A DNA stretch of 64,000 nucleotides from Helicobacteraceae bacterium (GTDB lineage: Bacteria > Campylobacterota > Campylobacteria > Campylobacterales > SZUA-545): contig JAIRKM010000035.1 in assembly GCA_031260125.1 (NCBI GenBank), positions 6,130 to 70,129 of the forward strand, in the 5' to 3' direction. Below are positions 21,244 through 24,577 of this stretch, in pieces. The notes under the pieces are model-generated. The model was given only the letters and a program-made list of their open reading frames with translations, ran no database searches and was not told the origin of the DNA. The position numbers and the translations under genes are program-made. The first letter of the stretch is position 1; each line of letters begins with the position of its first letter.

Positions 21244-21732
21244 ATGGAGCATGGTATGAGAAATACAGATGAAAAATGGTTGAGAATAGCCGCCTGCGAA
21301 GGAAGGATAGGCGCGAGAAAAGGAGAAGGGGGGCCATTTGGCGCTTGTGTCGTCAAAAACGGCGTACTGATCGGGCGGGCGCACAGCGAAGTGATCAAGC
21401 GCAGCAACCCGTGCGCCCACGCGGAGATCAACGCGATACGCCTGGCTTGCCGAAAACTAAAAACCGTCGATCTAAGCGGCGCCACGCTTTATACAAGCTG
21501 CGAACCGTGTCCGATGTGCATGGGCGCCGCTTTGTGGGCGCGGCTATCGAGAGTTGTTTACGGCGTGAGCATAGAGAAGGCGACAGAGATCGGCTTTGAC
21601 CACTCTCTCTTTTATGACTATTTCAAAGATCGATCGATCGTTCGCTGGCTAGAAGTCAAAGAGGTCAAAAGCAAAGGTTGCACCGATCTTATGAATGCTT
21701 GGCTTTTGAATCCGCGCAGACAGCACTACTAG
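21244..21732 (+). CDS. CDA-fold nucleoside/tRNA adenosine deaminase (TadA/GuaD-like)
   Basis: Zinc-binding motifs HAEINAI and CEPCPMCMGA; 162 aa. Confidence 0.8.
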   Translation: MEHGMRNTDEKWLRIAACEGRIGARKGEGGPFGACVVKNGVLIGRAHSEVIKRSNPCAHAEINAIRLACRKLKTVDLSGATLYTSCEPCPMCMGAALWARLSRVVYGVSIEKATEIGFDHSLFYDYFKDRSIVRWLEVKEVKSKGCTDLMNAWLLNPRRQHY

Positions 21733-22841
21733 AGATCAAAAAAGCCGCGCATCATAGACAACAGCTTGTCTGTGTCAAGGGTCGGTTCGTAGTATATAAG
21801 CGTGTTGTTTAGCTGCGCTCGCAGAAGAGCGCCCTTTTCAAAATTCTTGTGTATTCTTTTGCCGCGCTTGATCGCTTCCTTTGATTCGGTGCTGGCGACA
21901 TTTATGATCATCACCTTACCGTCGTGATCCATTTGATCTAACAGCGCGTCATACTTATATATCAGATTTTCGCCATCGACTCGATCGCGGAATTTGCATT
22001 CGATTATATAGAGGTGGTTGTTTTTTATCATTAAAACATCAAACTCATTCTGCACAAGGACATTATCAACCGTGTGATAGCTCACTTTTACGCCAGAAAG
22101 TATATCGTCAAAATTCAACGAGGCTACAAGAAAATATATTATGTCTTCAAAGAGGCCGCCCAGTATATAATTCATATCAAGAATCTTGCCGTTGCGCGCT
22201 AAGACGCCCATTTTCAAAAGAGGCTCTATTACCGTTTCGTAGCGTTCCCGTTCAATATTTTTTTCAAGCATAATCCGTCTTCTGAAACGCTGAAACGTAT
22301 CAAAATTTTCCGTAATCTGCTCAATGTGCGCCTTACGGTTGTAAAGATCGTTTACATCTCTTGCCTCAATGAGCGTATAGCCTTTAGATATAATGTGGTC
22401 TTCGATTTTCATATTGTGTTTTATATTGTGCTTACGCATACCGTTTGAGGTAAGTTTTGTAATTGTATTTTCGTAGCGATCGTAAACCAATAGCTGCGCT
22501 CCGGCATCTAGCGCCTCTTTCGATAATACTATAACCAGACTCGCGCTTGCGTCGCTTGCGTTGATCATTAGTTGATCGGGCGGCGACATATTTATTATCT
22601 CGTTTATAAGAGCATAGATACTCTTTAGATCGTTAGCGTTGACCTGCGTCTCGCGCAGCGTACATTTCAAGCGGAATTTCGCGCGCACGGCGTTAAGCCC
22701 GCTGGTTATCCGAACGGCGGATTGCCTGCTGCGATCGTCTATGCCGTGAATCAGAAGGTGATGCGTTATTTCGTGCTTAAACTCAAAAAATACGGGAAGA
22801 ACAGAAGAGTCAAATTCGCCCAACAACGAAACGAGAATCAT
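21729..22841 (-). CDS. Card1/Can2-like CARF-domain nuclease (DUF1887): CARF + PD-(D/E)xK restriction-endonuclease-like domain
   Basis: 370 aa. N-terminus MILVSLLGEFDSSVLPVFFEF (CARF-type first beta strand). C-terminal nuclease motif FDVLMIKNNHLYIIECKF (D...E-C-K), very similar in pattern to the Card1 catalytic region. Strong SD AAAGGAG 7 nt before the ATG. Confidence 0.6.
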   Translation of the reverse strand: MILVSLLGEFDSSVLPVFFEFKHEITHHLLIHGIDDRSRQSAVRITSGLNAVRAKFRLKCTLRETQVNANDLKSIYALINEIINMSPPDQLMINASDASASLVIVLSKEALDAGAQLLVYDRYENTITKLTSNGMRKHNIKHNMKIEDHIISKGYTLIEARDVNDLYNRKAHIEQITENFDTFQRFRRRIMLEKNIERERYETVIEPLLKMGVLARNGKILDMNYILGGLFEDIIYFLVASLNFDDILSGVKVSYHTVDNVLVQNEFDVLMIKNNHLYIIECKFRDRVDGENLIYKYDALLDQMDHDGKVMIINVASTESKEAIKRGKRIHKNFEKGALLRAQLNNTLIYYEPTLDTDKLLSMMRGFFDL

Positions 22842-22910
22842 ATCCGCGCTCCTTTTTTGTCATAGTAGCATAACTAGACTCCAAGGGAGAGCGGATAAGC
22901 GCAGGGCGGG

Positions 22911-22948
22911 GTGAAAACAGAGGCGCGCCCCTGTTTTCACGGTTTTTA
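22911..22948 (+). terminator. Intrinsic terminator hairpin (perfect 10-bp stem) with T-tract on the + strand; overlaps groEL stop
   Basis: GTGAAAACAG-aggcgcgccc-CTGTTTTCAC followed by GGTTTTTAG on the + strand; on the minus strand (groEL sense) it is preceded by an A-tract instead. Confidence 0.55.
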
Positions 22949-24577
22949 GTAGTCCATACCGCCCATGCCGCCGCCAGGCATTGCGGGCGCGGCTGCCGGC
23001 TTGTCCTCTTTGACTTCGCTGACAGTAGCTTCTGTCGTCAGCAAGAGGCTTGCCACAGAGACGGCGTTTTGCAACGCGATTCTCTCAACTTTTGTTGGAT
23101 CGACGATGCCGGCTTCAAACATATCGACATATTCGCCGCTAGAAGCGTTGAAAGCTACGTTTTGCTTCTCCTTCTCCACCGCGTTTACGATTACGCCGCC
23201 GTCATAGCCCGCGTTTTCCACGATCTGGCGAAGCGGGGATTTAATCGCTTTGAGGATGATCTCCGCGCCGATCGCCTCGTCGTCCGTAAGTTTCAGATCA
23301 ACTTTCGCCGCGGCGCGAATCAAGGCGGCGCCACCGCCGATTACGATGCCTTCCTCAACCGCCGCTTTAGTAGCGGAAAGCGCGTCTTCCACGCGATCTT
23401 TGCGTTCTTTCATCTCGATCTCGCTTGCCGCGCCGACTTTGATCACCGCTACGCCGCCGCTAAGTTTCGCCAGGCGCTCCTGAAGTTTTTCTTTGTCGTA
23501 GTCGCTGGTTGTTTCGGCGATCTGCTGTTTGATCTGCGCGATTCTCGCTTTGACCTCTTCGGATTTGCCCTTTCCGCTCACGATCGTGGTGTTCTCTTTT
23601 TCGATAATCACGCGGGAAGCCTGACCGAGATCGCTTAACAGCGCTCCTTCAAGCGTGCGCCCGAGTTCTTCGGCTATCACCTGTCCGCCCGTAAGGATCG
23701 CTATATCTTCCAGCATCGCTTTGCGGCGATCGCCAAAGCCCGGAGCCTTAACCGCCGCGATATTCAAAACGCCGCGCAGCTTGTTTACCACCAGCGTCGC
23801 AAGCGCTTCGCCCTCGACATCTTCGGCGATAATTACAAGCGGCTTGCTTGACTTGACAAGTTGTTCAAGAAGCGGCAGGAGGTCTTTCATAGAGGAGATT
23901 TTCTTGTCAAAAAGCAAGATATACGGGTCTTCGATCTCCGCCTGCATCTTTTCAGAGTTGGTTACAAAATAAGGCGAAAGATAGCCGCGATCAAACTGCA
24001 TACCCTCAACCACATCCATCTCGTCCTGAATGCCTTTTGCCTCTTCCACCGTAATCACGCCGTCTTTGCCGACCTTTTCCATCGCTTCGGCAATCAGCTT
24101 GCCAATTTTGGCATCCTCGTTAGCCGACACCGTCGCAACCTGCTCGATCTCCTTCTTGCCCTTCACTTCGCGGGTGATCTTTTTAAGCTCAGAGATGATC
24201 ACCTCGCTCGCCTTATCCATGCCGCGCTTGATGCTGATCGGGTTTGCGCCCGCCGTAACATTGCGCAGCCCCTCTTTGAAGATCGCGTGCGCGAGAATGG
24301 TCGCGGTTGTGGTGCCATCGCCGGCCGCATCGGCGGTTTTGCTCGCAACCTCTTTGACCAAAGACGCGCCCATATTTAAGAGCGGGTCTTTCAGCTCGAT
24401 CTCTTTGGCCACGCTCACGCCGTCCTTTGTGATGTGCGGCGCGCCGAAGCTCTTTTGGATCAGCACATTGCGTCCCTTTGGACCCATCGTTACCTTCACC
24501 GCATCCGATAGAATCTTGACGCCTTCGTAAAGTTTCTGCCGTGTGTCGTCCGAAAAACGAATTTCTTTTGCTGCCAT
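22946..24577 (-). CDS. groL: Chaperonin GroEL
   Basis: [16 protein letters not shown]..., ends ...[10 protein letters not shown]; 543 aa. Confidence 0.97.

Follow-up and report, generated by a model that had tools for sequence, protein, structure and literature searches.

A CARF4 nuclease gene behind groES-groEL

We analysed a 64-kb stretch of DNA (hereafter the window) from a Helicobacteraceae metagenome-assembled genome (MAG), in which the groES-groEL operon (groESL) is followed, on the minus strand, by an open reading frame (ORF) of 370 aa. Judged by its fold and catalytic residues, this ORF (21729-22841) is a full-length, intact nuclease of the Can2/Card1/VC1899 type, a family best known as ancillary effectors that serve type III CRISPR systems. 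The genes around it and the parts of the nuclease are as follows.

21244 to 21732, plus strand: convergent deaminase of the cytidine deaminase (CDA) fold, guanine/guanosine-deaminase-like by profile and similarity matches, sharing 4 nt with the nuclease ORF
21729 to 22841, minus strand: coding sequence of the 370-aa CARF4 plus PD-(D/E)xK nuclease, with Can2/Card1/VC1899 architecture and assigned to PADLOC family PDLC01891 (profiles, alignment and model)
21882 to 22181, minus strand: PD-(D/E)xK core, aa 221-320, with G228, E232, N265-E266-x-D268, E281-C-K283 and Y295-K296 (subfamily counts and alignment to the Can2, Card1 and VC1899 motifs)
22422 to 22841, minus strand: CARF (Rossmann-like) sensor domain, aa 1-140 (secondary structure of the model and conservation)
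22946 to 24577, minus strand: groEL, the conserved upstream neighbour of the nuclease gene
24595 to 24876, minus strand: groES

The protein begins with MILVSLLGEF and contains FDVLMIKNNHLYIIECKF, and the initial annotation had read it as a Card1/Can2-type protein (DUF1887) with a CARF start and a PD-(D/E)xK motif. Profile searches, structure prediction and fold comparison all agree with that assignment. The Pfam profile PF09002 (Card1_endonuc) matched at 3.5e-10, with 40 bits against a cut-off of 26.4, and the PADLOC profile PDLC01891 ('CARF4--CARF_PDDEXK') matched at 4.5e-73 and covered residues 1-327. An AlphaFold2 model derived from 22 homologues (predicted local distance difference test, pLDDT, 88.5; predicted template modelling score, pTM, 0.86) retrieved as its best Protein Data Bank folds in Foldseek VC1899 (1XMX, 7e-19, TM 0.70), Can2 (7BDV, 4e-17) and Card1 (6WXW, 7e-16), with matches spanning ~390 columns, followed by other Can2 proteins, Cdn1 and Can1, and then by stand-alone CARF proteins. 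As in Can2 and Card1, an N-terminal Rossmann-like CARF domain is fused to a C-terminal PD-(D/E)xK domain, and the catalytic E...ExD...ExK residues are all present (E232, E266, D268, E281 and K283); they are kept in 119-120 of 120 subfamily members.

The type III adjacency of the Can2/Card1 family is found neither in the window nor in the flanks of the groEL-linked relatives, which together are the scope of the word orphan in this study. No Cas, CorA or cyclase family was found among the 62 other ORFs of the window at PADLOC matches stronger than ~2e-11, and a direct-repeat scan of the 64 kb found no CRISPR-like interspaced repeats. The 20 largest window proteins were all housekeeping (flagellar, metabolic and other), with individual Pfam scans covering ORFs of at least 350 aa, and Tandem Repeats Finder (TRF) and tRNA scans of the window gave nothing relevant and no tRNAs. 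The PADLOC, repeat and large-protein scans thus bear out the earlier observation that no cas gene, CRISPR array or cyclase lies in the window.

Relatives of the nuclease at 43-89% identity come from Helicobacteraceae/Campylobacterales MAGs, many of them termite-gut bins. Wherever enough upstream DNA was present to read synteny, groES, groEL and the CARF4 gene followed one another on one strand (loci L001, L003, L004, L008, L009, L022, L024 and L026), with one ORF inserted in L005. The flanks of ~13 groEL-linked loci, among them a 21-kb stretch surrounding the gene on a 236-kb contig, contained no cas genes, and no relatives of the nuclease were found in viral contigs. Ratios of nonsynonymous to synonymous substitution (dN/dS) between the window and its closest relative, L001, were low throughout:

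Nuclease gene 0.069; its CARF domain 0.117; its nuclease domain 0.039
Neighbouring genes: recN 0.109; deaminase 0.145; ilvB 0.070; groEL 0.016

By these ratios, the nuclease gene is kept as strictly as its core neighbours, under strong purifying selection, and it is inherited vertically at a fixed position after groES-groEL.

A conserved, non-canonical ligand pocket and its CRISPR-linked relatives

One part of the CARF domain in which the window nuclease departs from characterised proteins is the following loop.

22542 to 22562, minus strand: N94-A-S-D-A-S-A100, the loop that follows strand 4; its counterpart in Can2 is N-V-T-G-G-T-K99 (aligned by profile to 7BDV, 6WXW and 8Z4I; subfamily counts)

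The initial annotation had noted that INASDASA replaces the ITGGTK of Card1, had called the motif degenerate and had offered either a different signal or loss of sensing as the reason. The canonical lysine is indeed missing. In the profile alignment, N94-A-S-D97-A-S-A100 stands opposite N-[VI]-T-G-G-T-K of Can2, Card1 and Cdn1, such that GG becomes D-A, a loop glycine being replaced by aspartate, and the position of Can2 K99 and Cdn1 K104 is occupied by A100. This loop lysine holds a phosphate of cyclic tetra-adenylate (cA4) in Can1 and Can2 and is one of five contacts conserved in all Can2/Card1/Cdn1 clades (T9/S19, Q11, T37/T42, K104/K99 and Y124/Y118). The window nuclease does not present this set: besides the exchange of lysine for A100, the threonine that follows strand 2 in Can2 and Cdn1 is G33, while the tyrosine is kept as Y120.

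Degeneracy, on the other hand, is not what the wider subfamily suggests. A profile search of 1.84 billion representatives gave a subfamily set of 116 clusters at E<=1e-30, and pocket conservation was counted in ~120 full-length members. INASDASA is a variant of the subfamily motif N-x-[ST]-[DE]-[GA]-x-[small], with N94 in 103 members, [ST]96 in 99, [DE]97 in 91 and [GA]98 in 97. Position 100 is mostly small (A, S, T, P or G), with lysine and arginine not among its common residues, and neither occurs there in any of the 23 locus sequences read. After strand 5, Y120 (112 members), D121 (104), [RK]122 (75) and N125 (109) are conserved, as are [ST]5, P16 and H28. The conserved pocket positions of the window nuclease are S5, D11, S12, P16, N94, S96, D97, Y120, D121, R122 and N125. 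When 13 groEL-linked sequences were compared with 10 CRISPR- or defence-linked ones, N94, S/T96, D/E97, Y120, N125 and S/T5 were common to both groups, and R122 was present in 13/13 orphans and 7/10 of the others. Within the orphans, N94, S/T96, D97, Y120, R122, N125, S5 and S12 are invariant (13/13) and D121 is variable. Given that CRISPR-linked relatives share the motif, the subfamily pocket is, from these alignments, a conserved non-canonical variant and not a product of decay. Conservation of the loop and of the other pocket positions, together with the CARF-domain dN/dS of 0.12, makes a different ligand or mode of binding likelier than a loss of sensing. Of the two explanations offered before, the different signal is therefore the better one.

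More distant PDLC01891 members, at 31-35% identity to the window nuclease, are embedded in CRISPR loci. In the Sulfurovum MAG locus L011 (9071-18957), the gene order is NYN, CARF4 (6.7e-106), CorA (1.8e-125), Cmr1, a short Cas10 without HD domain, Cmr3-Cmr6 and a CRISPR array, the last with a 38-nt repeat. An Epsilonproteobacteria MAG (L010, 364-9298) has the same order through Cmr3, and no NrN, DEDD or SAM-AMP lyase (SAM, S-adenosyl methionine) was found among the genes examined in these two loci. In Aliarcobacter butzleri (L028/L029), the nuclease gene comes after the array in a locus of the order WYL-CorA-Cmr1-Cas10-Cmr3-6-RT-Cas1-Cas2 (RT, reverse transcriptase), and in Sulfurospirillum cavolei (L032, 7003-8892) a 629-aa CARF4 fusion takes the place of CorA directly before Cmr1-Cas10. 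The first 314 residues of this fusion are 32% identical to the window nuclease and are followed by an unannotated C-terminal extension of ~300 aa; subfamily members of ~570-630 aa were also found in the representative search.

The CRISPR-linked L010-L012 carry the subfamily pocket signature, and the Cas10 proteins of these operons have two invariant acidic residues (117 sequences), D69 in GLFHDRFIF and E136 in YL[DE]xxE. They correspond to D70 (AGLFPDRYIFK) and E151 (KYLNIIENQE) of Bacteroides fragilis Cas10, positions that we worked out from the primers used for mutagenesis by Chi et al. (2023) and that are absolutely conserved in the CorA-1 cluster and needed for SAM-AMP synthesis (Chi et al., 2023). 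The features of a SAM-AMP type III-B system, namely an HD-less Cas10, the two acidic residues and CorA, were thus seen in the loci of the CRISPR-linked relatives and are absent from the window. Because their Cas10 carries the equivalents of D70 and E151, we infer that the CRISPR-linked subfamily loci signal by SAM-AMP and not by cyclic oligoadenylate. A pocket that lacks the phosphate-binding lysine and has conserved aspartates would, in principle, suit a ligand with a net-positive methionine moiety.

Other homologues were seen in settings of their own. L027 (8410-12025) encodes a homologue of 32% identity whose neighbours are a DHH-DHHA2 phosphoesterase, a Uma2-family endonuclease and a regulator of the HTH-WCX (WYL-type) class; no cas genes are in view. 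A 312-aa DHH-motif protein of the window (17235-18173) was considered as an NrN-type SAM-AMP phosphodiesterase and rejected, as it has no similarity to the DHH-DHHA2 protein beside the L027 homologue. In a Sulfurimonas MAG (L015, 156-6953), a tyrosine integrase stands on one side of the homologue and a 1588-aa TPR-containing protein on the other, which suggests a mobile defence-island context.

The groEL-nuclease spacer and the convergent deaminase

The control elements read around groESL and upstream of the nuclease gene are listed below.

22849 to 22854, minus strand: Shine-Dalgarno AAGGAG, 7 nt before the ATG of the nuclease gene (read from the sequence)
22862 to 22870, minus strand: extended -10 element TGCTACTAT (TGnTAnnnT), between the groEL hairpin and the nuclease ATG; putative promoter, its function suggested by conservation
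22911 to 22947: hairpin, 22911-22920 paired with 22931-22940, GTGAAAACAG...CTGTTTTCAC, with TTTTT on the plus strand at 22943-22947; read as the groESL terminator, possibly bidirectional
24912 to 24972, minus strand: groESL control region, with a TTGACA-18-TATAAT promoter (24943-24972) and an inverted repeat (24912-24938) like the controlling inverted repeat of chaperone expression (CIRCE)

The hairpin had been described as a perfect 10-bp terminator oriented for plus-strand transcripts, at which read-through from the deaminase gene would end as a full-length antisense RNA silencing the nuclease. A plus-strand hairpin and a TTTTT tract do exist, but the structure is not specific to that strand. 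Folded as minus-strand RNA it has 13 pairs in a row, one of them G.U, and reaches -18.2 kcal/mol, whereas the plus-strand form, a stem of 10 + 2 bp followed by GGUUUUU, contains an A.C mismatch, reaches -14.3 kcal/mol and is 3.9 kcal/mol less stable; a consensus terminator scan called the hairpin on neither strand. The hairpin starts 5 nt past the groEL stop, and its plus-strand T-tract overlaps the groEL stop codon. The groEL-CARF4 spacer could be read in eight relatives. Five of them (L004, L008, L009, L022 and L024) have a hairpin with a T-run behind it on the sense strand; in the other three (L001, L003 and L026) no clean T-run comes directly after the hairpin. On the antisense strand, the T-run of L001 amounts to TTT only. 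The TGnTAnnnT element occurs at the same place in all nine groEL-linked spacers read, those of the window and of these eight relatives. From this arrangement, the hairpin is most easily explained as the terminator of groESL, possibly a bidirectional one, with the nuclease's own promoter behind it, and would not be a dedicated antisense device.

Upstream of groES, the promoter matches the consensus perfectly, and the CIRCE-like repeat behind it reads TTAGCACTC-N9-GAATGCTAA with one mismatch, which suggests HrcA control of groESL. Co-transcription of the nuclease with groESL under heat shock is not favoured, as the two are set apart by the hairpin and by a conserved -10 element of the nuclease gene's own, although read-through is possible. 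A near-consensus sigma-70-like match, TTGACA-16-TATGAT (11/12; 21751-21778, minus strand), lies in the 3' end of the nuclease gene and points antisense into the deaminase gene; it may be a chance match.

At the other end of the nuclease gene, the placement between recN/tadA and groESL given by the initial annotation holds for recN, identified by its SMC_N match in Pfam, for the presence of a deaminase gene and for groEL and groES, but the deaminase resembles GuaD more than TadA. Its similarity to guanine/guanosine deaminases (2.5e-32; Bacillus subtilis GuaD 1WKQ, 6.7e-30) exceeds that to TadA (1e-19), and its score of 77 with the NCBIfam TadA profile is below the cut-off of 150, so the label 'tadA' is probably wrong. 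The reported overlap of the convergent stops is correct: the two ORFs overlap by CTAG at 21729-21732, and their stop codons share 2 nt. No terminator-like site was found on the plus strand between 21732 and 22911, in line with the earlier statement that none separates the convergent genes, and this absence leaves room for antisense read-through out of the deaminase gene. Such read-through is without comparative support; the convergent deaminase was found only in the window and in L001.

In four deeper lineages, the gene directly downstream of the nuclease gene, on the same strand, encodes a small, membrane-anchored Sel1-repeat protein with a hydrophobic stretch at its N terminus; this gene is absent from the window.

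L022: 11113 to 11730, Sel1-repeat gene
L009: 9963 to 10508, Sel1-repeat gene
L008: 11164 to 11661, Sel1-repeat gene
L026: 2057 to 2608, Sel1-repeat gene

Elsewhere in the window, three ORFs matched the MADS profile mad8 (best 4.3e-08), two mad3 (5.5e-22) and one mad2 (7.8e-19) in the PADLOC batch, which could be generic ATPase/kinase similarity. A 506-aa ORF at 3716-5236 (minus strand), two genes from the secretin gene (1133-2656), matched no Pfam family at E<=1e-6.

Interpretation and comparison with known systems

We consider the following explanation the best one, with somewhat better than even confidence: the window encodes a ligand-gated Can2/Card1-type nuclease that was detached from CRISPR, became fixed after groESL and is opened by a ligand other than canonically bound cA4, and the hairpin is the groESL terminator. 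The N-terminal CARF sensor would gate the C-terminal PD-(D/E)xK nuclease, which by homology would act as a dimer. It belongs to a Campylobacterota-centred subfamily (PDLC01891) in which the phosphate-binding lysine has given way to a small residue, with an aspartate in the loop and Y-D-R..N after strand 5. In free-living relatives, members of this subfamily are ancillary genes of type III-B CRISPR operons of the CorA kind, with a Cas10 that bears the acidic signature of SAM-AMP synthases. In the Helicobacteraceae clade that includes the window, the gene has been separated from CRISPR, was fixed directly downstream of groES-groEL and has been passed on vertically under strong purifying selection, with its own extended -10 element behind the probable groESL terminator hairpin. 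The nuclease would still be opened by a small ligand, for which SAM-AMP or a relative is the leading candidate, supplied by a generator encoded elsewhere or by another source.

Several observations weigh against this explanation. For the N-terminal pocket loop after strand 1, no alignment to solved structures was obtained, which leaves the residue equivalences there uncertain. Position 11 is aspartate in all orphans and H, L or I in the others (p = 9e-7), and D33, which aligns with the adenine-contacting threonine of Cdn1 and Can2, is lost in 10/13 orphans and in 0/10 others (p = 4e-4); the exchange G98A is unique to the window nuclease. Ligand sensing may thus be altered or weakened in the groEL-linked orphans, whose pocket is partly remodelled in a manner compatible with a changed ligand or with some relaxed constraint. 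L014 and L017 pair the nuclease gene with SAVED-domain proteins and not with CorA, which argues against an exclusive link to SAM-AMP. The minus-strand hairpin lacks a U-tract, and its role as a terminator is assumed from its position. Finally, a type III-B/CorA locus elsewhere in the genome would make the nuclease an ordinary ancillary effector served in trans.

This last possibility, an effector that is no orphan at all and answers to a type III system elsewhere in the genome, most likely of the Campylobacterota III-B/CorA kind, is the strongest competitor, to which we assign a substantial minority chance. The subfamily occurs within type III-B operons of Sulfurovum, A. butzleri and S. cavolei, most of the pocket signature recurs in CRISPR-linked members, the CARF domain is under strong purifying selection, and effector-less type III loci may activate effectors encoded elsewhere (Hoikkala et al., 2024). 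Such service in trans sits poorly with a groEL-side position that has stayed fixed over 43-89% identity, given that type III loci are patchy and mobile, with the lack of cas genes in the window and around the groEL-linked relatives, and with pocket positions 11 and 33, which differ specifically in the orphans. If sensing had instead been lost, the protein could be a relic like VC1899, its CARF domain a dimerisation scaffold and its role a ligand-independent housekeeping or stress function, such as nucleic-acid processing tied to the groESL/recN neighbourhood. VC1899 is the best structural match and an orphan whose acidic and hydrophobic pocket does not respond to cA4 (Zhu et al., 2021), and the loss of D33, the variability of D121, the unique G98A of the window and the conserved position after a heat-shock operon all agree with a relic. 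We nevertheless regard it as unlikely, given the eight pocket positions invariant in 13/13 orphans, the CARF-domain dN/dS of 0.12 and the hairpin and putative promoter of its own that separate the gene from groEL, so that heat-shock co-regulation is not indicated.

Least probable of all, and in our judgement very improbable, is a toxic orphan effector held silent by a full-length antisense RNA that reads through from the deaminase gene and ends at a plus-strand terminator at 22911-22948. The 4-nt ORF overlap, the lack of a plus-strand terminator-like site between 21732 and 22911 and the GGTTTTT after the hairpin on the plus strand would fit such an arrangement. Against it, the hairpin lies just behind groEL, where five of eight relatives have a sense hairpin and T-run; it is the more stable by 3.9 kcal/mol as minus-strand RNA, in which a G.U pair replaces the A.C mismatch; its T-tract shares bases with the groEL stop and is down to TTT in L001; and a conserved putative sense promoter is present. 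The convergent deaminase itself is confined to the window and L001, the other orphans having a co-directional Sel1 gene. Moreover, Can2-type nucleases are inactive without ligand (Zhu et al., 2021), and an enzyme of this kind, gated by its ligand and inactive as an apo protein, would not need antisense silencing. The antisense terminator, the claim that had made this locus look striking, is not supported and is best dropped.

Within the favoured explanation of a ligand-gated nuclease detached from CRISPR, the nature of the ligand allows a more speculative proposal, which we put forward tentatively and to which we give a low probability. The signal that opens the CARF nucleases of PDLC01891 may be SAM-AMP, or a related non-cyclic, partly cationic nucleotide conjugate, and not a cyclic oligoadenylate; the groEL-linked genes may then be domesticated copies that hear a generator encoded elsewhere or, with pocket positions 11 and 33 remodelled, an endogenous SAM-derived or stress metabolite. 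By titles and abstracts, none of the papers screened that name SAM-AMP, CARF and Can2 together concerned a SAM-AMP-gated CARF effector, and the link of the subfamily to SAM-AMP, as it emerges from gene context and Cas10 residues, would be a new lead. That the nuclease is instead an off-switch degrading SAM-AMP was considered, because L010 and L011 lack NrN, DEDD and lyase genes among those examined, and set aside, as this would not explain the intact PD-(D/E)xK site kept in the orphans. Were the SAM-AMP proposal true, the effector repertoire of this signal would extend beyond CorA to a first CARF sensor and a first soluble nuclease, and CARF domains would not be limited to cyclic oligoadenylates. 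If the orphans answer something else, an immune effector would have been recruited into host physiology.

Orphan nucleases of the DUF1887 family are already known, and orphan CARF effectors are a recognised puzzle, with VC1899 unexplained since 2004. The subfamily described here offers a cleaner system, with CRISPR-embedded and long-term orphan members side by side, a pocket that is conserved though not canonical, one fixed place in the chromosome and strong purifying selection. Among characterised proteins, Can2 of Sulfobacillus thermosulfidooxidans (7BDV) and Card1 of Treponema succinifaciens (6WXW/6WXX) are cA4-activated CARF4 plus PD-(D/E)xK nucleases of type III CRISPR systems. With these the window nuclease shares the two-domain fold, the motifs GxxFE, NExD and ExK, the N-x-[ST] with which the loop behind strand 4 begins, and the tyrosine after strand 5. 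It differs from them in having only ~15% identity, an alanine at the cA4-contacting lysine (Can2 K99, Cdn1 K104) and no type III locus in the window. VC1899 of Vibrio cholerae (1XMX), the founding DUF1887 member, is closest in structure; it is an orphan without type III association, and its nuclease residues are intact (Zhu et al., 2021). It belongs to a different subfamily, with sequence similarity detectable over the nuclease core only and 15% identity, and it keeps a basic residue, R96, at the lysine position, where the window nuclease does not. The subfamily of the window nuclease, unlike VC1899, also has CRISPR-embedded members. The window nuclease shows the features of a VC1899-like orphan, in that it has no type III association in the window and lacks the cA4 contacts, and this is a likeness of situation and not of close sequence kinship.

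Closer kinship is found with the PDLC01891 members in the type III-B/CorA loci of Sulfurovum (L011) and A. butzleri (L028), which have 33-35% full-length identity to the window nuclease and share with it the pocket motifs LN-x-[ST]-DG... and YDRY.N and the catalytic residues. They differ from it at position 11 (H versus D), position 33 (D versus G) and position 98 (G versus A), and their genes stand in operons with CorA, Cmr1-6, Cas10 and an array, whereas the window gene follows groEL without cas genes. CorA of the B. fragilis III-B system is the only characterised SAM-AMP-activated type III effector (Chi et al., 2023). It has an unrelated membrane protein fold, and the window contains neither CorA nor Cas10; in the CRISPR-linked loci, CorA stands in one operon with PDLC01891 genes or gives way to them.

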